Below, in pieces: positions 1,725-46,307 of a stretch of DNA of 64,000 nucleotides. Each line of letters starts with the position of its first letter. Within the stretch, counting starts at the first letter, position 1. The notes below the pieces were generated by a model. The model saw only the letters and a list, made by a program, of their open reading frames with translations, had not been told where the DNA came from and made no database searches. Source of the DNA: Spirochaetales bacterium (GTDB lineage: Bacteria > Spirochaetota > Spirochaetia > Treponematales > Treponemataceae); NCBI GenBank assembly GCA_003246765.1, contig QKDA01000231.1:25-64024 (forward strand). Direction: 5' to 3'. The position numbers were made by a program, and so were the translations under genes.

Positions 1725-1844
1725 CTTGGACCCCCGGAACCTGAAACCCTTGCCTCCCTTGACAGCTCCCGGGACCGCCTTTATGCTTGAGTACGGAAGT
1801 CATTGTCGGGAAACGTTTTATTTCCCGCTGAAAAGAAGGTATCT

Positions 1845-8333: not shown

Positions 8334-8345
8334 ATAAGGGATTTG

Positions 8346-8382
8346 GGAACAATCGGGTATTCTGTTATCCGATTGTTCCTTT
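8346..8382 (+). terminator. Hairpin after the 46-aa ORF
   Basis: GGAACAATCGG (8346-8356) pairs with CCGATTGTTCC (8369-8379) around a 12-nt loop. It is followed only by TTT, so it is a weak intrinsic terminator. Confidence 0.4.
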
Positions 8383-8407
8383 GCGCTTAAGGACGAATTT
8401 TCGGGGC

Positions 8408-9772: not shown

Positions 9773-9941
9773 CTTTGCGTCCTTGGGAAAGCATATCTCA
9801 ATTTAAGGAGACAATCCTGAAAAGAGCGGTTAATATGACCGTTTTGGTATAGAATTATAGGGCGGAGGAGACATTACGAAAACGTTAACGCTAGATGACC
9901 TACAGAGAATCAGTTTTTTTTCGAACCTATCGTCGTTTGAT

Positions 9942-16324: not shown

Positions 16325-18316
16325 TTATTTCTTGGATGTCCTGTCGAAGACGGCAAGATCGCCCTGGGGGTTCCCGAAACGTTCAGCGGAACCGCCGCGC
16401 ACGATGAATTGCTCATGCAGCAATTGCGTGGATAGCACGGCGACGACCCGCATGTTGTCCGTGTTGCTCATCTTCGATCCGCCCACCTTGGAGCATTTCT
16501 CGAACAGGCTCCGGACCATCGCGGGATTGAAGATGCCCGCGTCCTTTACCGACGTCCCGAAAACCAGGTCGGTGATCCAATCCGGCGCCCCCGGCGCGAA
16601 GAATGCCGCGGCGTCCGGAGCCCGATAGGGTTGTTTTGGCCTCCGAAGGATGGTTTCCGGGACTAGGTCCGCGAAAGTCTTCTTGAGGATGTGCTTTTCG
16701 TCGAGGGCGAGCAGTTTTTGCCAATGGGGCAATCCGTGCGCGAAATTCGCGAAATCCGGGTCGAGAAACGGGAAACGGCCTTCCACGGAATTTCCCATAA
16801 GCATCCTGTCGCCCTGGGACGAGAGAATATATCCCGGCAGTATCGTATTCAGCTCAAGCCATTGCGCCCTCGCGAGCGGGGACCATTCCGCGCAATCGGC
16901 GGGCATGCGTGACACGAGGGCCTCGTCCACACGCGTATTCCCCTCCGCCAGCCTGAATTCCTCGGTAAGCATACCCTTGAGAGCAGCCGTGGAATCCCAA
17001 CGAGGCCTGTGCGAGAGCGCGGGGTCCTGAGGATCCAGGTTTCGGCCGAAGAATGCCTGAGCGAAGGCGGGGGCCTTCCCGGGCGACCTATCCATCCAGG
17101 GATACAGGAGCTCGGCGGCCCTTGCCCGTTGCGCGGAGGAAGGATCCCGCGCCCAAAACCGCCGGATCATCGCTTCCCGAAAGATGTCGTACCCGCCGAG
17201 CATTTCGTCCGAACCCTCGCCGGTCACGACGACTTTATAGCCCGAAGAGCGCACGAATTTCGAAAGAAGGAACATCGGGGCGGGACCCGCCCGGAGGATG
17301 GGCCGTTCCGCGTGCCACACGACCTCGGGAAATACATTGGCTATGTCGGAGGAGGAAACCCTGACGTCGGTATGCTCGGTTCCGAGGCGGGTCGCCATTT
17401 CGTTCTGGAATGCCCCCTCGTCGAATTCCCCTTCCTCGAAACGGAGGGAGAACGTGCGCAACGGCGCATCCGTGTAGGTGCAGATGATCGCCGCGGTCAC
17501 GGAGGAATCGATTCCCCCTGAAAGGTATGCCCCGACCGGAACGTCGCTCCGAAGAAATCGAAGCTTGGTCGCTTCGATGAGCAGCCTTCTCAGCTCGGCT
17601 CCGTTTTCCTCGATAGAAAGGTTTGTCTCGGGTACTGTCGGCGGGAATTGGTGTCGGTGGTATTGCTCGATCCGGAGCCGTCCGTTGGATAGCAGGGCCC
17701 AGTGGCCCGGAGGCAACTCGGATATGCCCCTATAGGGAGTGCGCGGGGCGACGGGGATCCAGAAGGTGAGTATTTCGTCCAAACCCTCTGGGTCAAAACC
17801 CCTCCCGAGAGTCGGGTCGGCGAAAAGAGCCTTGACTTCCGAGGCGAATATGAATTTCCCGTCGGCGAACGCGTAGTGCAGGGGAACTATTCCCGATGGA
17901 TCGCGGGAGAGCGCGAGTTCTCCGGTTCTTCGATCCCAAAGGGCGAAAGCCCATTGTCCGTTGAACCGGCCGAGGCATTTATGCCCCCACTCTTCCCAGG
18001 CATGAATGATTACCTCGGTATCGGACGAGGTGCTGAAACGGTGGCCCAGGGCTTTCAGTTCCGCCGTGAGCTCGACATAATTGAAAATCTCGCCGTTAAA
18101 GGTGATCCAAATGCTTTCGTTCTCGTTCGCTAAGGGTTGCGTGCCGCCGGCCCGGTCGATGATCGCCAGCCGGGTATGTCCGAGCAGGGCCCGCTCGTCG
18201 CGGAAATATCCCCGGCCGTCGGGTCCCCGGTGGTGCAGACGGTTCATCATAGCGAGAATCAATTCGGGATCCGGCGGGCCGTTACGCGCGGTAACCGCCC
18301 CGCAAATGCCACACAT
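16325..18316 (-). CDS. Asparagine synthase-like glutamine amidotransferase (class II, AsnB family)
   Basis: N-terminal nucleophile MCGICG and PP-loop YLSGGIDSSV. 663 aa. Confidence 0.9.
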   Translation of the reverse strand: MCGICGAVTARNGPPDPELILAMMNRLHHRGPDGRGYFRDERALLGHTRLAIIDRAGGTQPLANENESIWITFNGEIFNYVELTAELKALGHRFSTSSDTEVIIHAWEEWGHKCLGRFNGQWAFALWDRRTGELALSRDPSGIVPLHYAFADGKFIFASEVKALFADPTLGRGFDPEGLDEILTFWIPVAPRTPYRGISELPPGHWALLSNGRLRIEQYHRHQFPPTVPETNLSIEENGAELRRLLIEATKLRFLRSDVPVGAYLSGGIDSSVTAAIICTYTDAPLRTFSLRFEEGEFDEGAFQNEMATRLGTEHTDVRVSSSDIANVFPEVVWHAERPILRAGPAPMFLLSKFVRSSGYKVVVTGEGSDEMLGGYDIFREAMIRRFWARDPSSAQRARAAELLYPWMDRSPGKAPAFAQAFFGRNLDPQDPALSHRPRWDSTAALKGMLTEEFRLAEGNTRVDEALVSRMPADCAEWSPLARAQWLELNTILPGYILSSQGDRMLMGNSVEGRFPFLDPDFANFAHGLPHWQKLLALDEKHILKKTFADLVPETILRRPKQPYRAPDAAAFFAPGAPDWITDLVFGTSVKDAGIFNPAMVRSLFEKCSKVGGSKMSNTDNMRVVAVLSTQLLHEQFIVRGGSAERFGNPQGDLAVFDRTSKK

Positions 18317-31313: not shown

Positions 31314-32198
31314 TTACCGTATTAATTCGCCCGTTAGATAATCGGAGCATTTGCTGAAGTACGGCATGCCAGCGCCGCCCTTGTTCGGGTAAAGGTATCC
31401 CGCTAGGCCTTTCGCCACGCGGCAATTCCTGAAAAGCACCGATTCTCCCTTGGAGTAGATCGCGTAATAGAACGCGTTTTCAGAAAGGAACTCGCAGGAA
31501 TCGAAAAGGGTATTCTCGGAACCGTTGTTCACCGACGATGTTTGGCCGCTTTGCCCCTTCACGTAGGGTCCCGGGGTTGTGAAACGGACGCGCACGAATC
31601 GCAATCCGTTCCCCCCGAGGGACTGCATCGTATCGACGTGGTTTTCCGGCGTGCCCGTGAACGTGATGGACAGTATCGAATCCTCCACTGAGCAGGGGGT
31701 CGGCGTGGCCATATCGTTTTGACCCTTCGCTCCGGCAGGCCGGAAGGCTTTTCTCCAGCCGGTGATCCTGGTCCACCGGACGGTCCAGCCCGTTTGGCCG
31801 CCGTACTCGAAAAAGAGTCCCTCGTCGAGGGCGCTATGGTCGATCAACACGGTCCGGTCGGTCACGCCGCGGCCGTCGACCGCCGCGAATCCCTTTCGGA
31901 AAAGGCAGTCCACGAAAAGGTATTTGCCCGACTTGCCGAGGGAAACCGGCTCCGCGAACCCTAGCCCGCGGTATTCCCCGGGCTCAAGGAAGTTACCGGG
32001 ATGTTCCGCGAGGGCGATCCGCGGCCCTACCTCCGAAAGGGCGGGGGGAGACCCGCCTGCGGCAGGCGGAAAGCCGAGGGAGTCAGCGCAGAGCCTGGCC
32101 GGGCCCGACAGGACCAGGAGGATCGGGAGGAGGGCATGATACCTTTTTGACCGAACCTTGCCGGAGGGCAGGAGCCCGGTAGGCCGGCGACCGTTCAT
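31314..32198 (-). CDS. Secreted protein, paralog 1 of an unassigned conserved domain of about 230 aa
   Basis: The ATG 32198 overlaps the stop of paralog 2 (ATGA). It shares the blocks YFEYGGQ..WT..WTRI.G.RKAFRP, TPTPC.VED..SIT..GTP.NHVDT.Q.LGGN...F.RVRFTTPGPY and DSCEFL with the two upstream genes. Confidence 0.7.
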   Translation of the reverse strand: MNGRRPTGLLPSGKVRSKRYHALLPILLVLSGPARLCADSLGFPPAAGGSPPALSEVGPRIALAEHPGNFLEPGEYRGLGFAEPVSLGKSGKYLFVDCLFRKGFAAVDGRGVTDRTVLIDHSALDEGLFFEYGGQTGWTVRWTRITGWRKAFRPAGAKGQNDMATPTPCSVEDSILSITFTGTPENHVDTMQSLGGNGLRFVRVRFTTPGPYVKGQSGQTSSVNNGSENTLFDSCEFLSENAFYYAIYSKGESVLFRNCRVAKGLAGYLYPNKGGAGMPYFSKCSDYLTGELIR

Positions 32199-33049
32199 GG
32201 CGCGGGCACTCCGGTCGTATAGTCGGTACAACCCACGAAAGTCGCTTTATAGGGATTATCGGGATACACGTAATTCGCGATGCCCTTAATGATCCTGCAA
32301 TTCCGGAAGAGCACGTTCGGAGCGTTAGAATAAACCGGATAATAGAATGCACCTGATTCGAGGAATTCGCAGCCATCGAAAAGGGTATCCCCCGCGTTGG
32401 CGTTTACGGATGAGGTTTGCCCGGTAACCCCGTTATTGTAGGGGCCGGGTGTCGTGAACCTGACTCGCACAAAGCTTAACTCATTCCCGCCGAGGGCCTG
32501 CATGGTGTCGACATGGTTGGACGGGGTACCCAGAAGGGTTATCGAAAAAACGCAATCCTCAACCAGGCAGGGCGTTGGGGTAGTGACATCCTGTTGGCTT
32601 TCTACGCCGGCCGGGCGGAAAGCCTTCCTGTCGCCCACGATCCGGGTCCACCGCATGGTCCAGTCTTTTTGACCGCCGTATTCGAAGTATACTCCGCCGG
32701 TAATATAGCAATGATCCACGAGCACCGTCCTGCCGGACAAGCCGCGGCCGTCGATCGTGCCGAGACCTGCCGTGAATTGGCAATCGGTGAAGCTGTAGGC
32801 TCCCGTTTTGCTTTGGAGGGATACTGAGGTGGTAAAGTTGTAACGGGCATAATCTCCGGCGGGCAAACTGCCCCCTAATCGATCGGTGAGCGCGTATCGG
32901 GGTCCTACCGCGCTTTCGGCGGGGGGGAAAACATAGGGCTTTGCCGTGTATTTCGTGCCTTCCGTGATTGAAATCAAATCCATGCGGCAGCCCGTGAAGA
33001 GCGCGGCCGTAAATAAAAGCGCCGTAAGGGCGCGGTACTTTTTCTTCAT
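32195..33049 (-). CDS. Lipoprotein, paralog 2 of the same unassigned domain
   Basis: Lipobox LFTGC, with the same conserved blocks as paralogs 1 and 3. Confidence 0.75.
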   Translation of the reverse strand: MKKKYRALTALLFTAALFTGCRMDLISITEGTKYTAKPYVFPPAESAVGPRYALTDRLGGSLPAGDYARYNFTTSVSLQSKTGAYSFTDCQFTAGLGTIDGRGLSGRTVLVDHCYITGGVYFEYGGQKDWTMRWTRIVGDRKAFRPAGVESQQDVTTPTPCLVEDCVFSITLLGTPSNHVDTMQALGGNELSFVRVRFTTPGPYNNGVTGQTSSVNANAGDTLFDGCEFLESGAFYYPVYSNAPNVLFRNCRIIKGIANYVYPDNPYKATFVGCTDYTTGVPAP

Positions 33050-33178: not shown

Positions 33179-34957
33179 TTATTGCTGTATCAAGGCTCCG
33201 GTTTCATAGTCCACGCAGTTCTCGAACGCGGCCTTGTTCGGATTCGAGGGATACACGTACCCCGCCAAGCCCCCGATTATTCTGCAATCCTTGAACCGCA
33301 CGTTCGCCGCATTCGAATACACGGTGTAGTAGAACGCGCCCTTTTCCAGGAACTCGCAGGAATCCAGCAGGGTGTTTCCCGCGTTTACGTTCACCGCGGA
33401 AGTCTGTCCCGTTACTCCGGCCTCGTAGGGCCCGGGGGTCGTGAAACGTACCCGGGTGAAAGTCATACCGTTGCCGCCCAGGGCCTGAAGGGTGTCGACA
33501 TGGTTCGACGGGGTCCCCAGCAGCGTGATCGAGAAGATGCTATCCTCTACGACGCAGGGCGTAGGGCTGGTGGTATCCTGCTGGCCGGTCAAACCGGTCG
33601 GGCGGAACGCCTTGCGGTCGCCGACGATTCTGGTCCACTTCACGGTCCAGTTGGTCTGTCCGCCGTATTCGAAGTAGATGCCGCCGAATACGTAGGTATG
33701 ATCAAGGAGAACCGTTCTCGAAACGCCGCTTCTGCCGTCAAAGACCCCGAAACCCGCGTCAAAACTGCAATCCCGGAATACGTAGGCGCCGGTATTGTTC
33801 TGTAACGACACGGAGGTGGTAAACCGGTATCCTTCGTAGGTTCCGGCGGGCAGGCTGCCGCCGGTCCTTGAGGTAAGGGCAACGCGGGGTCCAACCTGGC
33901 TTTCGGAAGGCGGACCGGCATAGGTAGAGGGCGCGGCCGCGGTTACGGTAAAGGTGGCGGTTGCGGACCCGGCGCGGGCTCCGTCGAGGGTCATGGCGGT
34001 TACGTCGACCCGGTAGGAACCGGCGGTCAGGGGCGAAGCGGAACCGTTCAGGGGAAGGGCGGCGCCTGAACCCGCGGAGGAGCCGTTAAGGAACCAGGAA
34101 TAGCTTACGTTCGAGGCGTTTGCGTCGCTGGACGCGGTGAGGGTGATAGCCGTTCCCGACGCGACGCTGCTGCTTACGTTGCCGATGGTTACGGTAAGGG
34201 GATCGGAGAGCGAAGGCGAAACCTCGATATCCACGCCGCCGGAGGGAACCATGAGATCCGGGAACGATACGGTTCCGCTGGAGGTTTCACCCGCCACTAT
34301 ACGGACGATGTCTACAGCGCTCGCCACGGATTCGCTTCCGTCAAGCAGGTTGACGCTGAGGGTATAGTAACCGGCCTCGACCTGATCGTCGACGGTGGCC
34401 TTGTTTACCCCTATCGCGGCGGTCAGGGGAATATGCACGTTGCCGGCGTTAATGAGTTCGACGATTGCCGATGGGTTTATAACGGCCCCGGGGGTCCAAT
34501 CTATCGTAAGATCCAAGGTACCCGGTCCCGTATACGGCTTAACGCTGATGTCGAGGGTGACGGTAGCCCCGCCGGTTACCGTAGTGACGCCGGTTCCAAG
34601 GCCGATCGATTTACCCTGCGCGTTTTTGGCGACGGTGGTGACCGTCCAGGTTCCCGCCGACAGGTTGGGAATGGTGACGGAAGAACCCAAAGAGGTCGTC
34701 GTAAAGGTATCTGAATTGGAACCCGTTCCCGATATCTCGTAGCTCGCCGGGGTCATGCTTATGGTCGGGGCTATCGTTCGCGACGCGTTGTCGATGAACG
34801 AAACGACCAACACGCCTTTTGCCGGTTCCGGGGCAGGCGCTTCCGGTTCGAGGGCGGGTTGCATTGAGCAGCCCATTTCGAGTAGCGCAGCAAGACCAGA
34901 CACTAATATCGCAAAAAGCATTTTACTTTTAATATTTGTGGGATGACGAGTAGCCAT
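33179..34957 (-). CDS. Large lipoprotein: Ig-like/beta-sandwich N-terminal region plus paralog 3 of the unassigned domain
   Basis: RBS AAGGAG lies 7 nt before ATG 34957. Lipobox LEMGC. About 330 aa of Thr/Ser/Val-rich beta-strand repeats, then the shared C-terminal domain. Confidence 0.75.
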   Translation of the reverse strand: MATRHPTNIKSKMLFAILVSGLAALLEMGCSMQPALEPEAPAPEPAKGVLVVSFIDNASRTIAPTISMTPASYEISGTGSNSDTFTTTSLGSSVTIPNLSAGTWTVTTVAKNAQGKSIGLGTGVTTVTGGATVTLDISVKPYTGPGTLDLTIDWTPGAVINPSAIVELINAGNVHIPLTAAIGVNKATVDDQVEAGYYTLSVNLLDGSESVASAVDIVRIVAGETSSGTVSFPDLMVPSGGVDIEVSPSLSDPLTVTIGNVSSSVASGTAITLTASSDANASNVSYSWFLNGSSAGSGAALPLNGSASPLTAGSYRVDVTAMTLDGARAGSATATFTVTAAAPSTYAGPPSESQVGPRVALTSRTGGSLPAGTYEGYRFTTSVSLQNNTGAYVFRDCSFDAGFGVFDGRSGVSRTVLLDHTYVFGGIYFEYGGQTNWTVKWTRIVGDRKAFRPTGLTGQQDTTSPTPCVVEDSIFSITLLGTPSNHVDTLQALGGNGMTFTRVRFTTPGPYEAGVTGQTSAVNVNAGNTLLDSCEFLEKGAFYYTVYSNAANVRFKDCRIIGGLAGYVYPSNPNKAAFENCVDYETGALIQQ

Positions 34958-35157
34958 AAAGAACTCCTTGGCGCCGGAAATTAATTTCGTGTGTCCGACG
35001 CACTGGAGATATAGCAATGAATGTGCCAACTGACAATTTTTTTTAAAGCGGTTATTTCTTTGCGGGATAAAGAAATAATTAAATGGCCATTTTAGGCGAT
35101 TTAAGAAATAAGTCCATTCTGATAATTACAATTTTGGAGAGAGATACGAATTTGTAA

Positions 35158-36162
35158 TCAGTACGTAAACTTGTCTTTATTCAGCGCTTCCTTCAAGAAC
35201 CCGATTCCCCAGTAAAACAGCCCAACCATGAAAAAAGGCATGATGAGCAGGCTGCGGGCGATATGTTTCGGTCCGGCCTTAATCAGGCGCGGAAAAATCT
35301 TGTAGCATTTGAACGCAAGAAATAGGGGGAACAGCACTACGGGGAGTATTCCGCGGAACGCGATGCTTTCGGTTTCGGTACGTTTGTACCGAGCGACGAA
35401 TTTGCCAAGCACGATTTCGTACCTGAAAAAGCCCTTCCAGCTTTCCCGGAAAATATGGTCTACTGTCATGTCGGGAAAGAAATATATCGGGGTGAATTCC
35501 CTCAATCTCATGCCCAGGATCACGTCTTCGGCTGCCCGAAGGTCGGGATAGCCCCCGATACGGTCGAAGAGCTCCTTTTCCATATAGTTGCTGCACCCGA
35601 TGACATAGGGCTTCTCTTGGGGCGAGCCGACGGGAAGATATTCGTTGAGCTGGAGGTAATACTGCGATAGGGCTACGAGTTTCCGCCGCTGGAACGGGGG
35701 AAGCGCGACGCTTCCGAATCCTACCTTATAACCCTCGCGGTAATGACCCACCAACTTCTCTATGTATCCGTCTTCGAGTATAACGTCGGCGTCGAAGAAC
35801 ACGAGAACCGAGCCTTTCGCTTCCCTGGCGCCGATATTTCGCTGGGTTGCGGGTTGAACCCGTATCCCCGAATTGACGAAACGGACTCCCTTCGTCTCGA
35901 ACTCGGCGATGAGATCGGGCATCAATCCGTCGTCCGAAGAGTCAACGACGATGATATCGGCTATGTAGTCCTGTTCCTGGGACAAAATGGAGGGGAGCGT
36001 GTGCCGTAACGTTTTTGCGGAGTTATACGCCGGTATCACGATCGATACCAGATTTCGGTCGGAATCGGGCACGAATTCGCTCGTTTTAGGGCAGGTAGCT
36101 TCCAGTAATTCCGTATTCAAGATTTTCCTCAATTTGTTGATCGTTACCGTACAGAATAGCAC
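35158..36162 (-). CDS. Family 2 glycosyltransferase
   Basis: VSIVIPAYNSAKTLRHTLPSILSQ, IIVVDSSDDG, FFDADV, and C-terminal TM segments. GTG start, uncertain. Confidence 0.8.
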   Translation of the reverse strand: MLFCTVTINKLRKILNTELLEATCPKTSEFVPDSDRNLVSIVIPAYNSAKTLRHTLPSILSQEQDYIADIIVVDSSDDGLMPDLIAEFETKGVRFVNSGIRVQPATQRNIGAREAKGSVLVFFDADVILEDGYIEKLVGHYREGYKVGFGSVALPPFQRRKLVALSQYYLQLNEYLPVGSPQEKPYVIGCSNYMEKELFDRIGGYPDLRAAEDVILGMRLREFTPIYFFPDMTVDHIFRESWKGFFRYEIVLGKFVARYKRTETESIAFRGILPVVLFPLFLAFKCYKIFPRLIKAGPKHIARSLLIMPFFMVGLFYWGIGFLKEALNKDKFTY

Positions 36163-36201: not shown

Positions 36202-37005
36202 TTAAAATTGCACTAGGCTGCCCTCTTTCTTCGCGCGGAAAACGGCCGCCCGGAGGCTCGCGAGCCCGCAAGGAAAAAGAACGAGGGCGAAACACGCAAG
36301 ATACCCGATAGTCGCCAGCCAGTGACCTTGGCCGTTCGGCACCAGAAGTATTTCCCTTATTGCCGTGGCAGCGTGGGTGATCGGCAACAATTGGGACAGC
36401 TTTTGCAGCGGGACGGGCAGCACTTCAATCGGAAATATGATTCCTCCGAGAAAATAACTGGACATGCCGAACGCGACGTTTACCGGGTTTCCCTGCTTGA
36501 AAAGCAGGATGAAAGCGGCCGATACCATTCCGAGGGAGAGAAAGCAGATGAACGTGAGGAATAGGACAAGCAGGACGAGCCCTATGGCGATCAAGGAAAC
36601 GCCGATTTTCCCTATCACGACGGTCAGCGCTAGATAGATCAGGCTCAACACGAAGGAAGAGGCGAAAGACCACAGCGAATTGCCGAAGAGCACCACGTTC
36701 GGGGAAGTCGGTGTTGCCAGGAGGATTTCGAGGGTTCCCTGCATCTGGGCCCCTCGTACTTCCTGTGAGAGAGATTGCAATCCCGTTGAAACGAAGGTGC
36801 TTACGCACATGCCCAATAAAACGAAGGAAAAATAATCGTTCCCGTAACGGGCAAGCGAAACCGAAATGCCCGATTGGAAAATCTTGCTGACGAAGAAGAA
36901 CATGAAAACGGTCAGGAAGATCCCGCCGAAACCCATGAAAAAGCGGAAACGATAGCTGATCTGGACCAAAAAATCCCTTTTGATGAATTGCAGTAGTTTA
37001 TACAC
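36202..37005 (-). CDS. ABC-2 type transporter permease
   Basis: Six hydrophobic segments and an N-terminal LLQFIKRDFLVQISYRFRF typical of ABC-2 permeases. GTG 37005 lies 1 nt after the ATPase stop; the ORF-track start 37050 would overlap the ATPase gene. Confidence 0.75.
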   Translation of the reverse strand: MYKLLQFIKRDFLVQISYRFRFFMGFGGIFLTVFMFFFVSKIFQSGISVSLARYGNDYFSFVLLGMCVSTFVSTGLQSLSQEVRGAQMQGTLEILLATPTSPNVVLFGNSLWSFASSFVLSLIYLALTVVIGKIGVSLIAIGLVLLVLFLTFICFLSLGMVSAAFILLFKQGNPVNVAFGMSSYFLGGIIFPIEVLPVPLQKLSQLLPITHAATAIREILLVPNGQGHWLATIGYLACFALVLFPCGLASLRAAVFRAKKEGSLVQF

Positions 37006-37006
37006 G

Positions 37007-37993
37007 CTAGCCCCCCGCGGTCCTATGCAGCAGTTCCCTGAGGTCGCCATCGTTCGCGACGGCGGAGAGGAGCCTTCCCCCCTGGCTTACGAAGGAACGC
37101 AACATCGCTTCCTGGGTTTCCCGGTTCCCGTCGTAACTGACGCTGAGCGACCCGTCGCTCTCGAGCCTTGTCGACCCTTCATGTTCCGCCAGCCATGACG
37201 CGGGTATTTCGCCCGCAAAGGTCAATATGAGCCTTGCCAGGCCGCCGGTAAGCCTTCCCAGCTCGCCGATCGTCCCCCTCGCCTTAACGCTTCCCTTGTC
37301 GAGAACGACCACGGAATCGGCGAGTATGCGCGCTTCCTCAAGATCGTGGGTACACAGGAAAACGGTTCGACCCTGACGTTCCACCAGGTTACGCCGCACG
37401 AAGGCCCAGAATTCCTCCCGGGCGAAGGGATCAAGATGCGATGCGGGCTCGTCGAGCAGGTATAGTTCGGGTCGCCCTATGGCCGCCCGCGCGATGTTCA
37501 GTTTTTGTTTCATTCCTGCGGAATACAGGCGATACGGTTTATCGGCCGCGTCGGTCAAGCCGGTATCGGACAGGACCTCCGACACCCGCTCGTCGAGCGT
37601 TCGTCCCCGAAGGTTATAGAGGGAACCGAAAAAGCGAAGGTTTTGGCGGCCCGTGAGGCGCCAGTAGAACGAACGCTCATTCGGCGTCACGATCCCAATG
37701 TGGCCGTTCATGGCCCGCGCGGAGTCGCTCGGGGATTGGCCCCGGTATCGAATGTCCCCGTGGTCGGCAACGATCAGGGACGCGAGTATCTTCAGGAGGG
37801 TCGTTTTGCCGGCGCCGTTCGGGCCCAACAAACAGGTGATTTCCCCTTCGGCGATATCGATATCGACCGATTTTAAGACTTCAATCGCGTTTTTTTTCGC
37901 GAAAGGATTCACTTGGGCTACCTTGAATCCTTTCGATACGCCCGCCAGGGCTACCAAGGGTACTTTTTTATCGCTTGACATTGCCTGTATCAT
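37007..37993 (-). CDS. ABC transporter ATP-binding protein (ABC-2/DrrA-like, with a C-terminal extension of about 100 aa)
   Basis: Walker A GPNGAGKTT, signature YSAGMKQK, Walker B LYLLDEPASHLD. The start is probably ATG 37993 (AGGGGGG upstream) or 37981. Confidence 0.9.
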   Translation of the reverse strand: MIQAMSSDKKVPLVALAGVSKGFKVAQVNPFAKKNAIEVLKSVDIDIAEGEITCLLGPNGAGKTTLLKILASLIVADHGDIRYRGQSPSDSARAMNGHIGIVTPNERSFYWRLTGRQNLRFFGSLYNLRGRTLDERVSEVLSDTGLTDAADKPYRLYSAGMKQKLNIARAAIGRPELYLLDEPASHLDPFAREEFWAFVRRNLVERQGRTVFLCTHDLEEARILADSVVVLDKGSVKARGTIGELGRLTGGLARLILTFAGEIPASWLAEHEGSTRLESDGSLSVSYDGNRETQEAMLRSFVSQGGRLLSAVANDGDLRELLHRTAGG

Positions 37994-38026
37994 ACCGCCC
38001 CCCTTGTTACCTGACAAGCATTTACC

Positions 38027-38055
38027 TTGACAGTAGCTCCAGATGCATAATAATC
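38027..38055 (+). promoter_or_regulatory. Candidate sigma-70 promoter of the maturation-like cassette
   Basis: TTGACA (38027-38032), followed at 15-17 nt by the overlapping TAATAA/AATAAT/ATAATC. About 30 nt upstream of ATG 38086. Confidence 0.35.
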
Positions 38056-38085
38056 TTTAATATCTCAATAAGTTATTGTAAGGGA

Positions 38086-39195
38086 ATGATGGACACGACC
38101 ACAGAGGCCTCGCTTATCTTGGCCTGTCTCAAGGATGATACGGATTATGCCCAGAATCTGATCGATAGCGGGACCGTTCGACAAAGGGTACTTTATTCAC
38201 TCGCCGAAAAAAACTTGGTTCGGGCCTATTTAAGCGAATTCCTGCTCAAGTTGCGACTGCCCGATTCCTATCCCCTCAAGCTTTTCGCCACCGTGCTCCA
38301 GCAAAACGCCCTCGTCGTGGACATTCTCAGGCAACAGGCCCGACACTGCGAACGGGCGCTCGCTGAACGCGGGATTCCAATGCTCGTCTTGAAGGGGCTG
38401 ACGATCCCCTGCGATTATCCCAGGGATATCAACGACCTGGACATCATGATCCGGGAAAAGGACTTGGTGGCCGCCGCGGAAACCCTTACGAAAGCCGGCT
38501 ATCGCTACGTCGGCGACGATCTCAGCCGTATCGTTCCCTCTTCCCAGAAGGGGAATATAGTCCGCCAGTCGTTGTGGAACAATGAATACCTCTTCAAACA
38601 CGGTCAATCCGGCTTGCTTATCGAGCTTCACACGAATTTATTCCCGCGCACGCGCGTTTTTCCCCAGAACCTGAACGTCTACCTGGATTCCGTAGAGGAC
38701 CTATGGTCTCGTGCCGTGGATTATCCCGATATCGGCCTGAAAGGGCTTTGCCGCGAGGATCTCTTTCTTCTCCTGTGCGTTCACGGTTCCGTAAAGCGCT
38801 GCCCCGGCAAGAACCGCTTCGCGATCAGGACTTGTCTCGATCTCGCGGCGGTTATAGGGAAGGGCCTGGACTGGGAAACGGTAATCATGCTCGCGCGCCG
38901 TTACAGGATCGCGGAACACCTCTTTCTGGGTTTCGCGATTCTCTCGGCGTACTTCCCTGCCTCCGTCCCGGACGGGTTGCGTAAAAGGGTTTGGCAGGCG
39001 ATGCCCCGCAGGTTTCGCTTCCTTGAACGGATACATTTCGCGGCTTTCGACGGCCTGGGGGAAAGCAAGCCGTTCTTCGCCTATGTTTACCGCCTGATCG
39101 TCCCGTTCTTCTACGGTGGCACCCCGGGATCCCGCCTTTCCTTCGCTTACTCGGCCGCGATACATCCCTTGAGGAAAATCAAGCATGGCGACTGA
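38086..39195 (+). CDS. Nucleotidyltransferase-family protein (NTP_transf_5-like)
   Basis: VLKGLTIPCDYPRDINDLDIMIREKDLVAAAETLTKAGYRY matches the pattern I recall for the uncharacterised nucleotidyltransferase family. Start taken at the ATG-ATG at 38086, not the ORF-track 37975. Confidence 0.65.
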   Translation: MMDTTTEASLILACLKDDTDYAQNLIDSGTVRQRVLYSLAEKNLVRAYLSEFLLKLRLPDSYPLKLFATVLQQNALVVDILRQQARHCERALAERGIPMLVLKGLTIPCDYPRDINDLDIMIREKDLVAAAETLTKAGYRYVGDDLSRIVPSSQKGNIVRQSLWNNEYLFKHGQSGLLIELHTNLFPRTRVFPQNLNVYLDSVEDLWSRAVDYPDIGLKGLCREDLFLLLCVHGSVKRCPGKNRFAIRTCLDLAAVIGKGLDWETVIMLARRYRIAEHLFLGFAILSAYFPASVPDGLRKRVWQAMPRRFRFLERIHFAAFDGLGESKPFFAYVYRLIVPFFYGGTPGSRLSFAYSAAIHPLRKIKHGD

Positions 39196-39655
39196 AGGCG
39201 CCTTTACGGAGAGCGAGGGTTTCGCCTCTCTCCTGGCCGGCGGCCTGGAGGGCATGGTCAGCCTGCGCGTGCTTTCCGGCAGCATGAGTCCCGCTATCGA
39301 AACGGGCGACTTGGTGAGTATCGCGCCTTGTTCCTGGAAGGAATGCAGAACGGGTGATATCATTGTCTTCAAGAGGGGCTATACGTTGGTGTCCCATCGA
39401 TTGCTGCTGAAAATTCGATTCGGGGGACGGGCGTTTCTCTTCCAGGCAGGGGACGCGATGTCCAGGGGCGAACTGATCGAGCCGGAATCGATCGTTGGAC
39501 GTTGCACCGAAGTCAGGAAAAAGAACGCAAGCGTATCGCTCGAGAACGCCCGCGTGAACGCTAAATGGGCCCGCCGCGGGCGTCAACGAATCATGACCAG
39601 GCTCGTAAAGGATATTGTCAAATGTGCGCTGAAAAAAACGGTTACTTCTCGTTAA
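39185..39655 (+). CDS. S26B (SipW/Sec11-type) signal-peptidase-like serine peptidase
   Basis: SGSMSPAIETGDLV (nucleophile block), GDIIVFKRG and LVSHRLL (His block). It overlaps the upstream gene by 11 nt. Confidence 0.6.
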   Translation: MATEGAFTESEGFASLLAGGLEGMVSLRVLSGSMSPAIETGDLVSIAPCSWKECRTGDIIVFKRGYTLVSHRLLLKIRFGGRAFLFQAGDAMSRGELIEPESIVGRCTEVRKKNASVSLENARVNAKWARRGRQRIMTRLVKDIVKCALKKTVTSR

Positions 39656-40479
39656 GCCTTGGAATTTGCGATCTGGGACTGCGCTTCGAGTCGGAAATGG
39701 AAACCCGCAAATTGGCGGAGTATTTCGAGGGCCATGAAGGCTCCGGAAAACCGAAGGTTTTCATCAATTTCAAGACCGCGCCCTACGAAAGCGTCGGGAC
39801 GATTCCCCAAAGCCTAGTCCAGGAAAAAAGGTGGGAGAACGGCTCGTTCAGCATTGCCGACGGCATGATCGCCGGGAAATTCGATCCCATACTCAATTTA
39901 TGGACGGTAACCGTTAAGTATTACCTCTTGAAGGGCCAAACGACCCGCGTCTTCGAGCAATTCCTCTATCAGGCGTTTTATACGGCGGTCTCCAAGGAAA
40001 GATTGAATGCCTTCATGATCCACTCTTGCGGCGTTTCCGCCGGCGGATCGGGTTTCCTGTTCATCGGGGCCTCCGGCATGGGGAAGAGTACCGTAGCTTC
40101 GCATAGCCGGGAATACGGCGTATTCAACGACGAGATGAACGTCGTTTCCCTCGGCGAAACCGGTTATTTTCTCGAGTCCAGCCCGTTCAACGCCTATTTC
40201 AAGGGTAAATGCAAGGAGAGGGCGAAACTTCGCGCGATTTTCATATTGCATCACGCCAAGGAATTCCGCCTCGCGCCCGTTTCACCCGCAATGGCCGTAT
40301 CCGTCATCGCGGGGCAAATCGTTCCCCCCATCGGGCTTGAGGACGCCTTTGACCCCGGTACCGCCAACGCGATGATGGAACGGGCCATGGAACTCGTTTC
40401 AAGGATTCCCGTTTACCGCATGTCTTTCACCGTAGAAGGGGGCTACTGGCCCCAAATACTCGAGACCTTCGCCGAATAA
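39622..40479 (+). CDS. HPr-kinase-related P-loop protein (HprK-like kinase)
   Basis: IHSCGVSAGGSGFLFIGASGMGKSTVA equals the HprK C-terminal-domain pattern (H.s.v...g.g.l..G.SG.GKS). ATG 39622 overlaps the peptidase gene by 34 nt. Confidence 0.7.
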   Translation: MCAEKNGYFSLSLGICDLGLRFESEMETRKLAEYFEGHEGSGKPKVFINFKTAPYESVGTIPQSLVQEKRWENGSFSIADGMIAGKFDPILNLWTVTVKYYLLKGQTTRVFEQFLYQAFYTAVSKERLNAFMIHSCGVSAGGSGFLFIGASGMGKSTVASHSREYGVFNDEMNVVSLGETGYFLESSPFNAYFKGKCKERAKLRAIFILHHAKEFRLAPVSPAMAVSVIAGQIVPPIGLEDAFDPGTANAMMERAMELVSRIPVYRMSFTVEGGYWPQILETFAE

Positions 40480-40524
40480 GCAATCATAAAACGAAAAAGT
40501 TAGAAACACGAAAGGAGTGCCGAA

Positions 40525-40800
40525 ATGAATCGCGGGAGTGTCCTTAAAACGAAAGAGGGATTTACGGTCAGAAAAATGGGCGAGGAAACCCTTTTCCTTA
40601 ACGCCAACGGGTCCGCCATCCATGTTGCCGACGAGCTTGGCAGTTTTATCTATTCCCGGATAGACGGAGTGCGGACCATTGCCCAGATACTCTCGGATAT
40701 ACTTTCCGAATACGAGGTTGATAAGTCCGTCGCGGAGAAAGACCTTTTGTCCTATCTAGATTCCCTCATTACCCAGGAAATCGTGGAAACGCTTCAATGA
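40525..40800 (+). CDS. PqqD-family peptide chaperone (RiPP recognition element)
   Basis: 91 aa with the typical layout: beta-strands (FTVRKMGEETLFLNANGSAIHVADELGSFIY) followed by helices (TIAQILSDILSEYEVDKSVAEKDLLSYLDSL). Confidence 0.75.
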   Translation: MNRGSVLKTKEGFTVRKMGEETLFLNANGSAIHVADELGSFIYSRIDGVRTIAQILSDILSEYEVDKSVAEKDLLSYLDSLITQEIVETLQ

Positions 40801-41804
40801 AGGAGCTTCTCGAGCGTATATACCGGGACTATCGCTCAAACAATCGCATATACGCCGCGATGCTCGAATTAACGTGGCGTTGCGTCGCCAATTGCGTTCA
40901 TTGCTACCTATTGGACGAAAATCCCCCCGAGCTCGATACAGCGCAGGTACTCGACCTGTTGGAGCAGCTGCGGGAGGAAGGGACGATCGACCTGGGGCTC
41001 ACCGGCGGCGAGGTCATGATACGGAAGGATTTTCCCGTCATACTCGAGGCGGCCCACAAGGCCGGGTTCAAGATATCGGTATTGACGACGGGAATTCTGA
41101 TCGACGAGCGGATGGCCGACTTGTTGCGAGACTGCCGCGTGCATCACGTCGAGATGTCCATCCTCGGCGGAAACGCCGAAACCCACGATCGATTGATGCG
41201 GCATCCCGGGGCTTTCGATAAGATGATCAGGGGCATGCGGATGCTTCGCGACCGCAAAATACCGGGCGTGATGAAAGCGACGGTTCTCAGGGAAAACGCG
41301 GGCGAGCTCGAGGCAATGCGCGGGGTAGCCGACTCCCTGAAGGTGATGTTCAGCGCGAACGCGACCCTTTTACCGACGGTTGACGGGGGCAGCAAGCCCC
41401 AGGAACTGGGGCTTGATTCCGCGGCCGCCGCGTCGCTCGACCCGAAACTGCTGACAGGCGGCTTTATCGAGGACGGAGAATTATCCGGCGGAGCCGTACT
41501 CACCTGCAACGCGGGCAAAATAAACTGTTGCGTATCCCCCGACGGTTCGGTATACCCCTGCCTTATCTGGAGACGCCCGGTCGGTTCCGTGCTCGAGAAC
41601 AGGATTTACGATATTTGGCACGCGAAGCCCGATCCGTATCTCGTCAAGATCCGCGAAGCCACCCCCCAGGATAGCGGCATATGCCACGCGTGCCCGAAGA
41701 AAGACAGTTGCAAGCGATGTCCCGGCAGCGCCTTTTCCGAAACGGGCGATTTTCAGGCGCCGATACCCTCGGCCTGCAGGCTATCGGGACTCGGCGGCCA
41801 CTGA
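40797..41804 (+). CDS. Radical SAM / SPASM-domain maturase
   Basis: CVANCVHC (CX3CX2C), the GGE block LTGGEVM, and a C-terminal Cys-rich SPASM region (CNAGKINCCVSPDGSVYPC, CHACPKKDSCKRCPG). The start overlaps the pqqD-like stop (ATGA). Confidence 0.85.
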   Translation: MKELLERIYRDYRSNNRIYAAMLELTWRCVANCVHCYLLDENPPELDTAQVLDLLEQLREEGTIDLGLTGGEVMIRKDFPVILEAAHKAGFKISVLTTGILIDERMADLLRDCRVHHVEMSILGGNAETHDRLMRHPGAFDKMIRGMRMLRDRKIPGVMKATVLRENAGELEAMRGVADSLKVMFSANATLLPTVDGGSKPQELGLDSAAAASLDPKLLTGGFIEDGELSGGAVLTCNAGKINCCVSPDGSVYPCLIWRRPVGSVLENRIYDIWHAKPDPYLVKIREATPQDSGICHACPKKDSCKRCPGSAFSETGDFQAPIPSACRLSGLGGH

Positions 41805-41843
41805 CCGCTCGCGCGACGGGCCGATTCCCGGGCCGCTCCACCC

Positions 41844-42785
41844 TCAGCTTTCCTCGTCCATGGTCTTGAGGAGCAGCGCATACTGCTCCTTGACCGAATC
41901 GGCGGAGGCGTGAAGGGCTTGCCTGTCGCGTTCGGACAGCGGAAGCTCGACGATGCGCGAAAGCCCCGCGGGACCCAAAACGCAGGGAACCCCGCAATAG
42001 ACACCGTCAAGCCCGTATTCGCCTTCCAGGTACGCGGTGCAGGGGAGGGGCCGGCCGTGGTCCTTGACCATCGCCTCCACCATCTCGGCGATGGACTCCC
42101 CGGGGGCGTAATAGGCCGAGCCGGTTTTAAGCAGGTTCACGATCTCGGCGCCGCCGTCGCGGGTGCGCTTCACGAGCGCGTCGATCGTTTCGGCGGGGAG
42201 AAGCCCTGACAGGGGCTTGCCCCGCGCGGAGGCCAGGGAGACGCAGGGAACCATGAGGTCCCCGTGCCCGCCCAGGACGAGGGCGTCGACCTCGCGGGGA
42301 TTGATGCCCAGTTCCCGGGCGATAAAAAGCTTGAATCGCGACGTGTCGAGCAATCCGGCCATGCCGATGATCCGTTCCCTGGGGAAGCCCGTTTCCCTGA
42401 GCGCCACGTGGGCCATCACGTCCAGGGGATTCGTTACCATGAGAACGACGCATCCGGGTGAATGCCTGACCGCCTCGGTCACGGCGGAGCGGACGATTTT
42501 CGCGTTGCAGTGGGCCAGGTCGTTCCGGCTCATGCCCGGCTTTCTGGCCATGCCGGCGGTAACGATGACGAGGTCCGAGCCGGCGGTGTCACCGTAGTCG
42601 GCGGAACCGTAGAGGACCGTATCGAATCCCGCGATAGAAGCGCTCTGCGCGATATCGAGGGCCTTTCCCCGCGCGACACCCTCGATGACGTCGAGGAGCG
42701 CGATTTCGTTAACCAGGTTTCGGTCGGCTATGGTTTTCGCCGCGGTAGCCCCGACGTTGCCCGCGCCGATTATCGATATTTTCAT
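41844..42785 (-). CDS. mdh: Malate dehydrogenase (LDH-like family)
   Basis: RBS AAGGAGG before ATG 42785. MKISIIGAGNVGATAA, VIVTAGMARKPGMSRNDL, LVLGGHGD. Confidence 0.85.
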   Translation of the reverse strand: MKISIIGAGNVGATAAKTIADRNLVNEIALLDVIEGVARGKALDIAQSASIAGFDTVLYGSADYGDTAGSDLVIVTAGMARKPGMSRNDLAHCNAKIVRSAVTEAVRHSPGCVVLMVTNPLDVMAHVALRETGFPRERIIGMAGLLDTSRFKLFIARELGINPREVDALVLGGHGDLMVPCVSLASARGKPLSGLLPAETIDALVKRTRDGGAEIVNLLKTGSAYYAPGESIAEMVEAMVKDHGRPLPCTAYLEGEYGLDGVYCGVPCVLGPAGLSRIVELPLSERDRQALHASADSVKEQYALLLKTMDEES

Positions 42786-44274: not shown

Positions 44275-46307
44275 ATGTTTCGCGATTCAGTAGGTTCCCT
44301 GACCCTCGAGGAGAAGGCTTCGCTCTGCGCGGGCGAGAGTTTTTGACATACCAGGGCCGTCGAGCGGCTCGGCATTCCGTCCTGGATGATGACCGAAGGG
44401 CCCCACGGACTGAGGAAGCAAAAGCCGGCGGGGGAGGGAACCGGCCTCTTCGACAGCGTCGAGGCCACCTGCTTTCCCCCGGCGGTGAATCTCGCGGCGA
44501 CGTGGAACCGGGAATGCGCGAGAAAGGTCGGTGCGGCGGTGGCCAGGGAATGCAGGGCGGAGGACGTCGGGGTGCTGCTCGGCCCCGGGGTGAACATGAA
44601 GCGGAGCCCCCTGTGCGGGCGGAATTTCGAGTATTTTTCCGAGGACCCCCTGCTTGCCGGCGAACTCGCGGCCTCGCTTATCGAGGGGGACCAGGGCGAG
44701 GGCGTGGGCACGTCGCTGAAGCACTTCGCGGCGAACAACCAGGAAGGATACCGCCTTTTGTCCGATTCGGTCCTCGATGAGTGGACCCTGCGCGAGATAT
44801 ACTTGAGGGCCTTCGAGATCGCGGTAAGGAAGGCGAAACCCTGGACGGGGCGGTTTTGGACCGAACCGTGGCGCGGCTCCTTGACCTGACGTCCAAGGTG
44901 GCGGAAAGCGGGCGGAGCCGGGAACCGGCGGACCTTGGGGCCCATCACGCGCTCGCCCGGGAAATCGCGGAAGAGTCCATCGTGCTATTGAAGAATGAAG
45001 GCGGGTTTTTGCCCCTGAAACCGGAGGGAACGATCGCGTTCATCGGGGAGTTTGCCCGAAAACCCCGGTTTCAGGGCGGCGGCAGTTCCCATATCCAGCC
45101 GACCCGGGTGGACGATCCGTACGGGGAAGCGGGCCGCCTCGGCGGTTTCAGGCTGACCTACGCGCCGGGGTATTCCGCCGCGTCCGACGGGAGCGACCCC
45201 GCGCTCATCGAGGAAGCCCGGCGCGTCGCGGCGGCGACGGACAGGATCGAATCGGAGGGATACGACAGGACCAGTCTCGATTTGCCCGAGGCCCATAGGG
45301 CCCTGATCGACGCGGTCACGTCGGTAAACCCGAACGCGGCGGTGGTTTTGATCAACGGCGCTCCCGTCGCGATGCCCTGGCTTGACCGGGTTCCCGCGGT
45401 CCTCGAGGCCTATCTCGGCGGGCAGGCCGCGGGCGGCGCGATAGTCGACACGTTATTTGGTAGGGTGAATCCCTCGGGCCATCTCGCGGAGACCTTTCCC
45501 GCGCGGCTTGAGGACTCGCCGGCCTATCCCTGGTATCCCGGCGGCAGGGAGAAGGCCGAATACCGGGAAGGGGTTTACGTCGGGTACCGCTACTACCGTG
45601 CGAAACGGCTGAGGCCGCTGTTCCCCTTCGGCCACGGGCTTTCCTACACGACCTTCGGCTTCAGCAACCTGAGGGCGCCTTCGGGAAGGATTGACGGGAC
45701 AAAGGACGTATCGATATCGGTGGACGTGACCAACGAGGGGAAAGTGCCCGGTAAAATAGCGGTGCAGCTTTACGTGCGGGACCGGGAATCCTCGGTTCAC
45801 CGCCTGGAACGGGAATTGAGGGCCTTCGAGAAGGTTTCCCTGGAGCCGCACGAGACCAAGACGGTCCGGTTCGTTTTGGACCCCCGCGCGTGGTCCTTCT
45901 GGGACGAGGGGCAAAGCGGCTGGCGGTTCGAGAGCGGGATTTTCGACGTGATGGCGGGCGCCTCAAGCGAGGATATCCGCCTGGAGGCGGCGCTGGACGT
46001 GCATAATCCCTCCGCCGGGATTCCCTTTCCCGACATGCACTCGACCCTGGCCGATTTCAGGGCCTATCCGGCGGGACGGCGCTTGGCGGATACCCTCGCG
46101 AAACCCTTTCTCGACTCTTTGGGCAAGTTGGAACCCGCTTCGGCCGAGGCGCGCATGGCCGCGAGCAAGACCGAGGAGATGCCCCTGCGGGCCTTCCTGA
46201 ATTGCTCGGGCGATCGAGCGTCCCGGGAGCTGGCGGAACTGACGAAAGCGGTCATACGGGGCGAACGACCCGAGGCGGACCTGGAGGGAAAGTTCGGGGG
46301 AGCCTGA
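44275..46307 (+). pseudogene. GH3 beta-glucosidase (BglX-like) pseudogene: premature TGA plus an internal out-of-frame deletion
   Basis: GGAGG RBS and ATG 44275. [30 protein letters not shown], where family members have Trp (44344-44346). GH3 blocks continue ([36 protein letters not shown]), then jump frame at about 44838 straight to [16 protein letters not shown]. The segment that should hold the SDW nucleophile is missing. Confidence 0.8.

Follow-up and report, generated by a model that had tools for sequence, protein, structure and literature searches.

What does a compact set of peptide-maturation-like genes act on when no peptide gene lies beside it? The question is posed by a five-gene cassette at the edge of an exopolysaccharide (EPS) locus of a Spirochaetales bacterium, in a stretch of 64,000 nucleotides (contig QKDA01000231.1, positions 25 to 64,024) that is referred to here as the window. 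An initial annotation had described the cassette as an orphan, with no precursor-like open reading frame (ORF) inside or beside it. The latter statement is literally true and nevertheless misleading: a conserved precursor family exists, and its member in the window is encoded at 8193-8333, 30 kb upstream, so that the cassette is not an orphan. We think it likely that the cassette is a biosynthetic pathway for a RiPP (a ribosomally synthesised peptide with post-translational modifications) and that this 46-amino acid peptide is its substrate. The genes concerned are the following.

38086-41804, plus strand: the five-gene cassette (NTP_transf_5, S26B-type peptidase, ScmC, PqqD, radical SAM/SPASM)
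38086-39195, plus strand: g1, NTP_transf_5 (PF14907), nucleotidyltransferase fold (Pfam; the ORF opens at 37975)
39185-39655, plus strand: g2, small, predicted soluble clan-SF S26B-type peptidase, 156 amino acids (TIGR02228, PDB, AlphaFold2 (AF2)/Foldseek)
39622-40479, plus strand: g3, ScmC-family protein (Pfam PF27840), 285 amino acids (the ORF opens at 39565)
40525-40800, plus strand: g4, PqqD-family RiPP recognition element (PF05402, NF033536)
40797-41804, plus strand: g5, radical S-adenosylmethionine (SAM)/SPASM enzyme (Pfam Radical_SAM and SPASM)
38027-38054, plus strand: sigma-70-type promoter-like site 5' of the cassette, TTGACA-16-AATAAT (11/12 consensus matches)
8193-8333, plus strand: candidate precursor gene, 46 amino acids and a stop, MKKTYNAPQLKTEKLEIGVFGDYTGESHHNWNPIGILHPLFGLCCS (tblastn, leader hidden Markov model (HMM), family profile)

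The annotation had listed five same-strand genes with three overlaps behind a TTGACA-type promoter, and all of these are present, on the plus strand. The overlaps, as they follow from the coordinates, are at 39185-39195 (g1/g2), 39622-39655 (g2/g3) and 40797-40800 (g4/g5), the last being an ATGA in which the start of g5 overlaps the stop of g4. The g3 start at 39622 is favoured because homologues of g3 are 284-285 amino acids long. An exact-sequence cluster look-up of the window's proteins returned no names, and an Rfam scan of the window found no family besides one tRNA-Leu.

A peptide family beside the radical SAM gene

The evidence comes from comparison with other loci, numbered here from L001. 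Contigs that encode homologues of g3 share a core of small peptidase, ScmC, PqqD and radical SAM/SPASM genes, and directly after the radical SAM gene, on the opposite strand, they carry an ORF of 45-56 amino acids. A 43-60-amino acid ORF comprising leader and core adjoins the radical SAM gene in 12 related loci (L001, L002/3, L007/8, L009, L011, L012, L013/14, L015, L021, L022, L023 and L025), and this small peptide is the only gene that always does so. Searches started from the peptides lead back to the same cassette (L012, L013, L015, L023 and L025). A scan of genome contigs with the ScmC alignment, swamped by the P-loop pattern, yielded two loci only; a metagenome scan with the peptide alignment yielded at least seven matches. 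In L015 the order is exactly that of the window's five genes, followed by the peptide, a Bac_transf gene and a VpsT-like gene. Judged by gene neighbourhood, which the annotation had proposed as a check and which finds the cassette conserved across genomes, the peptide family, ScmC, PqqD and the radical SAM/SPASM enzyme constitute a conserved unit, with the S26-like peptidase, NTP_transf_5 and the ABC-2 exporter as frequent members.

The peptides of L001 (MKKVYKAPQLKTEKIEIGVFGSYGGGAWGTVIGWFNPLFGLCCGG) and L002 (MKKVYKSPTLKTETIAIGVFGAYGSDSGDGAWAPVIGWFNPFFGLCCGG), used as tblastn queries against the window, give a single strong match at 8193-8333 (E 2e-15 and 2e-12, respectively), which has an AGGAGG ribosome-binding site 7 nt upstream and whose product ends in Cys-Cys-Ser (Cys44, Cys45). 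An HMM of the leader makes exactly one match per locus (E <= 4e-10, with the next best at 0.28), including one clean match in the window. A family profile built from six peptides and searched against 5.8 billion clusters brought together 32 members. Their leader conforms to K-x-Y-x-x-P-x-[LIV]-[KR]-[ST]-E-x-[LIV]-x-[IV]-G-V-[FY]-G-x-Y-G, in which Y5 and P8 show no variation across alignment A2 and position 10 is L, I or V, there and in the wider family. A Gly/Asp/Ser-rich linker separates the leader from a core that ends in [IV]-G-x-[FL]-[NQH]-P-[LF]-F-G-L-C-C; all 32 peptides have P(-5), F(-3) and the two Cys. What follows the Cys pair varies: Ser in 10, two to five Gly in 15, a Gly run with other residues in three, and Asn, Tyr or Pro in four. 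The Tyr of G-x-Y-G is the only near-invariant hydroxyl outside the Y-x-x-P motif. NCBIfam scans assign the peptides to no family, the sole weak match being to the N-terminus of a lasso precursor model, lasso_cyano (E 0.028). The peptide family and its product have not been described so far.

A variant precursor is encoded in L025 (5371-5502, plus strand; MNKRKIYKAPKIRSEKVKIGVFGNCNNARDDGYTWHPSKDHAIFGFCG), with Cys in place of the G-x-Y Tyr and a single terminal Cys, yet accompanied by the full cassette, including the radical SAM gene.

The window differs from every other examined locus in having its peptide far from the radical SAM gene, at the other edge of the polysaccharide locus. The peptide gene belongs there to a block consisting of an ATPase gene (1803-3431), a regulator, a priming transferase and the peptide:

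3519-4196, plus strand: VpsT/CsgD-like LuxR-family regulator
6943-8109, plus strand: Bac_transf polyprenyl glycosylphosphotransferase (EPS priming enzyme), directly upstream of the peptide gene
8345-8380, plus strand: terminator-like 15-bp hairpin immediately behind the stop codon of the peptide gene, followed by UUUG (-27.9 kcal/mol, z -6.0; 0/200 shuffles fold as well)

In L001 and L002 the homologous block (57-77% identity) abuts the radical SAM gene, and a rearrangement has therefore placed the EPS genes between peptide and cassette in the window. No inverted repeats were found at the implied breakpoints (8250-8500 compared with 41700-41950).

Convergent with the peptide gene is a gene for a sigma-54-dependent response regulator (8408-9772, minus strand), a 46%-identical homologue of which lies ~3 kb from the peptide in L012. 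Beyond it in the window, a single 832-amino acid ORF (9942-12440, plus strand) joins a cNMP-binding domain and HD_5 to an AMP-binding acyl-CoA ligase; the cNMP-binding/HD_5 part is a separate 338-amino acid gene in L012, beside a sigma-54 response regulator.

The enzymes of the cassette

The gene identities given by the annotation are upheld, for NTP_transf_5, PqqD and Radical_SAM/SPASM by Pfam and for the S26B/SipW-like and HprK-like proteins by best models that score below their cut-offs. The first gene, g1, is a clear NTP_transf_5 protein (Pfam E 5.4e-30). It is an accessory gene, with homologues in L002, L005, L012, L013, L015, L017, L018 and L025, and its position differs from locus to locus.

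The top NCBIfam models for g2 are archaeal signal peptidase I (TIGR02228, 3e-12, 46.7 bits against a cut-off of 51.85) and the SipW type (6e-7, 29.1 bits against 190), neither cut-off being reached, and among PDB sequences its matches are human SEC11A/C (E 0.003-0.007). The AF2 model (predicted local distance difference test score, pLDDT, 92.8) resembles the LexA C-domain, SipA, SpsB and SEC11A in Foldseek searches. Like the S26B signal peptidases (SipW, archaeal signal peptidase I, SEC11), g2 has the clan-SF fold and the catalytic boxes, which are invariant in 36 sequences: Ser33 (SGSM), His71 (HR, His replacing Lys) and Asp90 (GD). It differs from them in its length (~155 residues), in a long basic C-terminal helix (residues 122-155), in its sub-cut-off scores, in lying in an operon with cytoplasmic RiPP enzymes, and in having no transmembrane anchor. 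That the peptidase has no convincing membrane anchor had been remarked from the window alone, and it holds: no N-terminal hydrophobic anchor is found in 36 homologues or in the AF2 model. The g2 family comprises more than 213 clusters at 90% identity, some of which NCBI calls 'S24/S26 family peptidase'. By its modelled structure g2 should be a soluble, cytoplasmic S26B-type serine peptidase, and we propose it as the putative leader peptidase.

The nature of this peptidase bears on one other reading, which takes the substrate to be a protein secreted to the matrix or the surface, for example one of the neighbouring Ig-like (PKD or Cadherin-like) lipoproteins, with the S26-type enzyme acting as SipW does on TasA/TapA and the small peptide being incidental. 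The closest peptidase models are indeed signal peptidases of the SipW, archaeal and SEC11 types, and secreted Ig-like-domain proteins recur beside the cassette in most loci. These neighbours come from different families in different loci, however, whereas the small peptide is constant at the radical SAM gene; an anchor-less peptidase should reside in the cytoplasm, and PqqD proteins bind short leader peptides. A matrix protein, which the annotation had entertained as a substrate, is therefore very unlikely to be what the cassette works on. The secreted Ig-like proteins themselves (Cadherin-like, Flg_new, PKD and FlgD_ig) adjoin cassette or peptide in almost every locus; examples are at 4456-6432 (plus strand) in the window, 5989-7197 in L001, 4343-6325 in L002, 2538-3992 in L013 and 9633-11015 in L017.

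The precomputed Pfam assignment of g3 and of all its relatives is PF27840, ScmC. In NCBIfam, ScmC (TIGR04249) matches with E 8e-7 and the HprK-related kinases A/B with ~1e-3, all far below cut-off. The AF2 model (pLDDT 92) places g3 with ATP-dependent PEPCK (Foldseek E 4e-8) and HprK/P (1knx, E 7e-6): it has the PEPCK/HprK P-loop fold, with a Walker A motif, GASGMGKST, at 149-157. It was this fold search that placed g3; a search of PDB sequences with the ScmC profile found generic P-loops only. Invariant in the family are His134, G149, G154, K155, S156, T157 and N169-D170-E171. A profile search of 1.84 billion representatives found 79 proteins at E<1e-30 and 3,721 at <1e-10; close members of the ScmC family are few, and the superfamily around them is large. 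The family has a name, and we know of no substrate or product for it. We propose, from fold and motifs, that g3 is a putative ATP-dependent kinase acting on the precursor.

With PqqD (PF05402) g4 matches at E 3.8e-12, and its closest NCBIfam model is lasso_PqqD_Bac (NF033536, 6e-11, below cut-off). The last gene product, g5, combines Radical_SAM (Pfam E 4e-23) and SPASM (E 3.3e-7) domains; its CX3CX2C motif (C29/C33/C36) and seven SPASM Cys (237, 255, 296, 299, 305, 308 and 327) are invariant in nine orthologues, and its best solved relative is SkfB, a sactipeptide thioether synthase (3.7e-17). The top NCBIfam models are ScmE, AhbD and NirJ.

A proposed pathway and its relatives

Two loci have precursors of another kind. 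The peptides of L005 (11294-11425, minus strand; Spirochaetales metagenome-assembled genome (MAG); ...GVFGSYGHSGFHRPRKPRRPWLWWLW) and L016 (4503-4658, plus strand; Krumholzibacteriia MAG) share the leader, K-x-Y-x-x-P ... GVFGSYG, and continue into Trp-rich, Cys-free cores (PWLWWLW and ...WWWWWGWGR, respectively); NCBI names the L016 peptide 'putative RiPP precursor'. The ATP-binding cassette (ABC) pair, NTP_transf_5, peptidase, ScmC and PqqD are kept in L005, and in L016 ScmC adjoins the peptide on a 6.1-kb contig; neither has a radical SAM homologue. Judging by these peptides, the platform seems to have a second type of product. Peptidase, ScmC, PqqD and NTP_transf_5 would then handle the shared leader and the junction, and since the radical SAM gene tracks the Cys-Cys core, standing next to the peptide in all 12 other Cys-core loci and beside no Cys-free core, its product probably acts on that core.

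A radical SAM/SPASM enzyme could also be a mere neighbour of a kinase/peptidase/PqqD module, with a non-peptide role as an AhbD/NirJ-like cofactor enzyme or an anSME-like maturase converting Cys to formylglycine. AhbD and NirJ do score about as well against g5 as ScmE (~110 bits each), and the peptidase-ScmC-PqqD module occurs without a radical SAM gene in L005, L017 and L018. Against cut-offs of 400-515 bits, however, these scores are far too low, and they extend over the N-terminal radical SAM domain only; the g5 start overlaps the g4 stop, no heme or sulfatase genes are nearby, and it is precisely the loci with a Cys-free core that lack the gene. A cofactor or sulfatase function, which the annotation had named as the finding that would speak against peptide maturation, is accordingly exceedingly improbable, the best solved relative being SkfB.

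For the RiPP pathway that we favour, the following steps are proposed. Although the co-occurrence of the genes is observed, the chemistry of every step is inferred. PqqD would bind the lasso-type leader motif Y-x-x-P-x-L, and the radical SAM/SPASM enzyme would cross-link the C-terminal P-x-F-G-L-C-C region, most likely by thioethers at Cys44/Cys45 of the sacti/ranthipeptide type. ScmC would phosphorylate the precursor and NTP_transf_5 would then add a sugar or nucleotide to the phosphate, in the manner of PsmK and PsmN on a lasso peptide. PsmK, a homologue of HPr kinase, phosphorylates the C-terminal Ser of its lasso precursor, and PsmN, an uncharacterised NTP transferase, is needed for the hexose on the phosphate that PsmK makes (PMC6993621, PMC8498205). 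In the window the C-terminal Ser is the obvious candidate for phosphorylation; for the family as a whole the candidate would be the invariant Tyr of G-x-Y-G. The cytoplasmic S26B-type peptidase would remove the leader, probably after V-F-G (GVFG). Signal peptidases require small residues at -3 and -1 of the cleavage site, and this cut is proposed because V-F-G fits that rule. The divergent ABC-2 pair may export the product or give immunity.

A number of observations weigh against parts of this scheme. The C-terminal residue is Ser in just 10/32 peptides and six cores have neither Ser nor Thr; because Gly tails are commoner, and because of these six cores, a C-terminal Ser cannot be the general kinase site. 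The Tyr is not a universal target either, the L025 peptide being without it. Kinase activity of g3 is deduced from fold and motifs only, and its scores against the HprK models TIGR00679, TIGR04352 and TIGR04355 are 15-20 bits, well short of cut-offs of 200-240. The g5 scores against the heme-pathway enzymes AhbD and NirJ equal those against ScmE, all below cut-off. The S26-like peptidase is missing in L009, and no NTP_transf_5 homologue was found within 10 kb in L001, L009 or L011. Two Krumholzibacteria-type loci (L017, 6729-9623; L018, 6599-9627), in which NTP_transf_5 diverges from peptidase-ScmC-PqqD, have no radical SAM gene and no leader-type peptide within 8 kb, and they are syntenic with L013, which has radical SAM and peptide genes between PqqD and a FlgD_ig gene. 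In the window itself the pairing of peptide and cassette, 30 kb apart, rests on orthology with the other loci.

The place of the S26-like peptidase in L009, a distant locus whose neighbours include Por_Secre_tail proteins of the type IX secretion system, is taken by a second radical SAM gene (8867-9871; 334 amino acids, no SPASM). A lanthipeptide-style sequence of kinase action, elimination and Cys addition was considered and is ruled out by the six cores without Ser or Thr.

How, then, does the cassette relate to systems already known? The annotation's reading of peptide maturation, and the link that it drew to the kinase and NTP transferase accompanying lasso peptides, have both gained support. 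The phosphorylated or glycosylated lasso peptides (paeninodin; pseudomycoidin, psmCAKB1B2ND) share with the cassette an HPr-kinase-related kinase, an NTP transferase, a discrete PqqD/B1 protein, the Y-x-x-P-x-L leader and an ABC exporter, and the last residue of the window's precursor is Ser, the target of the kinases PsmK and PadeK. The differences are substantial. There is no cyclase in the cassette or in L001, L007, L009, L011, L013 and L015; no B2 transglutaminase-like Cys protease came up when the five proteins and those encoded nearby were scanned with Pfam and NCBIfam, and a Ser/His/Asp S26-like enzyme stands instead; the cassette has a radical SAM/SPASM enzyme; and an Asp/Glu at core positions 7-9 to accept an isopeptide bond is not a feature of the family, several cores (L001, P0032, P0036, P0044 and P0050) having no acidic residue at all.

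One could still imagine a divergent lasso pathway in which the S26-like enzyme stands in for the B2 protease and the Asn-synthase homologue at 16325-18316 serves as cyclase. Leader, lasso-type PqqD, HprK-like kinase and NTP_transf_5 (the last two known lasso accessories) would fit, the window, L002 and L012 have Asn-synthase genes in the vicinity of the cassette, and the window's AsnB matches the lasso cyclase model at 1.5e-63. That match fails the cyclase cut-off, however (215 against 525 bits), whereas the protein passes the cut-off of true glutamine-hydrolysing asparagine synthase (482 against 267 bits), and the stretch matched (residues 1-389) includes a glutamine amidotransferase domain (32-165). 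L007, L009, L013 and L015 have no Asn-synthase gene, and a lasso pathway would leave the radical SAM/SPASM enzyme and the invariant Cys-Cys unexplained. With no cyclase, no B2 protease and cores that are devoid of acidic residues, this reading was rejected as highly improbable.

Sacti- and ranthipeptide pathways (SkfB/skf, AlbA, PapB and the SCIFF maturases) resemble the favoured RiPP pathway in their radical SAM enzyme with a seven-Cys SPASM domain, Cys-containing core and ABC transporter genes, and here too a short precursor with conserved Cys is co-encoded (adjacent in 12 loci, 30 kb away in the window). In contrast to them, recognition falls to a free-standing PqqD protein where they have an N-terminal fusion, the two donor Cys sit at the very C-terminal end of the precursor, the core set includes an S26-like peptidase as well as a protein of kinase fold, and no NCBIfam model matches the precursor.

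The trio of ScmC-family, PqqD-family and PqqE-like radical SAM/SPASM proteins recalls SynChlorMet (NCBIfam ScmC TIGR04249, ScmD TIGR04248, ScmE/ScmF TIGR04250/04251), and in NCBIfam g3 and g5 score best with ScmC and ScmE, respectively. Syntrophobacter fumaroxidans, Chlorobium limicola and Methanocella paludicola are carriers of canonical SynChlorMet cassettes. All of its cut-offs are missed (ScmC 28.7/125, ScmD 22.3/100, ScmE 112.7/400 and ScmF 82.2/400 bits). SynChlorMet has two radical SAM/SPASM enzymes (ScmE and ScmF) and the window's cassette one; the cassette also comprises an S26-like peptidase, NTP_transf_5 and the ABC-2 exporter, and a precursor family can be recognised for it. To our knowledge SynChlorMet has no identified precursor or product. 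By these comparisons the cassette is related to SynChlorMet and not a member of it. The GeoRSP and HPr-rel-A names that the annotation had given for such neighbourhoods do not apply, the scores lying far below their cut-offs (geo_PqqD_fam TIGR04302, 27.2/100; GeoRSP_rSAM TIGR04303, 80.7/400; HprK_rel_A TIGR04352, 18.4/200 bits).

Our literature search found nothing linking an HPr-kinase-like protein, PqqD and radical SAM, the combination of RiPP, PqqD and HPr kinase returning lasso papers only, and nothing relevant on SynChlorMet, on ScmC with radical SAM, on HprK-related kinase or on NTP_transf_5 (PF14907). The annotation had gone so far as to speak of a new RiPP-like class. This is plausible, with the qualification that the g3 family already bears the name ScmC in Pfam and NCBIfam and so is not unseen. 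The novelty lies in a precursor family not described before and in an uncommon set of enzymes within those RiPPs that combine radical SAM/SPASM with a recognition element.

Exporter, exopolysaccharide and significance

A divergent ABC-2 exporter pair, as the annotation had it, does lie on the other side of the cassette promoter, and consists of a DrrA-like ATPase and an ABC-2 permease:

37989-38017, minus strand: divergent promoter-like site for the ABC genes, TTGTCA-17-TATGAT, read from 38017 to 37989 (10/12 consensus matches)
37007-37993, minus strand: DrrA-like ABC transporter ATPase, divergent from the cassette
36202-37050, minus strand: DrrB-like ABC-2 permease, putative exporter or immunity partner

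Both promoter-like sites are simply consensus matches. The ATPase adjoins the cassette in L001, L002, L005, L011, L012, L015 and L025 (40-56% identity), and the permease is found in the same loci at 46-66%.

The surrounding ~30 kb of the window form a polysaccharide locus that encodes Wzz, a flippase resembling Wzx, a hexapeptide acetyltransferase, several glycosyltransferases of families 2 and 1 (GT2/GT1), an SLBB export protein, AsnB and Bac_transf. The peptide gene begins 84 nt downstream of the Bac_transf gene in the window, and the linkage is kept in L001, L002, L011 and L015 (Bac_transf identity 56-63%), the distance in these five loci being 28-84 nt on the same strand. In four of them (the window, L001, L002 and L015) the gene of a VpsT/CsgD-like regulator is also near; in L011 the contig stops at Bac_transf. 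EPS genes are found on the ABC side of the cassette in L002 as in the window, and L012 has an Asn-synthase gene beyond the cassette. There are no EPS genes nearby in L009 and L013. The physical tie to exopolysaccharide that the annotation had noted is thus real in one lineage and not universal, as gene neighbourhoods indicate. Because the precursor gene stands directly behind the EPS priming transferase gene and near that of a VpsT/CsgD-like regulator, peptide and matrix polysaccharide are probably made together in this lineage.

Several neighbouring genes are recorded here for completeness. The ABC-2 permease gene is followed after 40 nt, on its own strand, by a gene for a GT2 glycosyltransferase (35158-36162, minus strand). 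Among NCBIfam models this enzyme comes closest to MftF, the glycosyltransferase of mycofactocin (3.7e-21, well short of the cut-off), and it might decorate the peptide instead of the polysaccharide. Three further minus-strand genes, which are consecutive (31314-32231, 32195-33049 and 33179-35029), share a repeated C-terminal segment, ..FEYGGQ..W.V.WTRI.G.., that has no Pfam or NCBIfam match; the largest product (33179-35029, 616 amino acids) combines this segment with a PKD domain and an N-terminus like that of a lipoprotein, and homologues of it occur beside the cassette in L012 and L025. On the plus strand the coding sequence of a family 3 glycosyl hydrolase is divided between two ORFs (44386-44889 and 44781-46307) that lie in different frames and overlap, the first holding some of the N-terminal domain and the second the C-terminal and Fn3-like domains, probably by frameshift, pseudogene formation or assembly error.

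The linkage to the priming transferase invites a bolder reading, which we regard as unlikely: that this is a new RiPP class, in which ScmC, the S26B peptidase and PqqD form a leader-dependent platform for several core types, radical SAM/SPASM being added for Cys-Cys cores, and whose product is coupled to exopolysaccharide functionally or covalently. Phosphorylation by ScmC and sugar transfer by NTP_transf_5 would then give a phosphoglycosyl-peptide that might prime, cap or anchor the matrix polysaccharide. Such a role, if true, would explain why the precursor gene lies immediately downstream of the priming transferase.

For the RiPP pathway that we consider likely, what had appeared to be an orphan cassette would become a testable system of a 46-amino acid substrate, four or five enzymes and an exporter. 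No RiPP class in the literature searched has its combination of a protein with a kinase fold, a signal-peptidase-like enzyme that lacks the membrane anchor and is the likely leader peptidase, and a leader of lasso type unaccompanied by lasso machinery. And since the precursor lies beside ScmC in every locus with a recognisable peptide (the window aside), the peptide family may offer the first handle on what ScmC proteins act upon.

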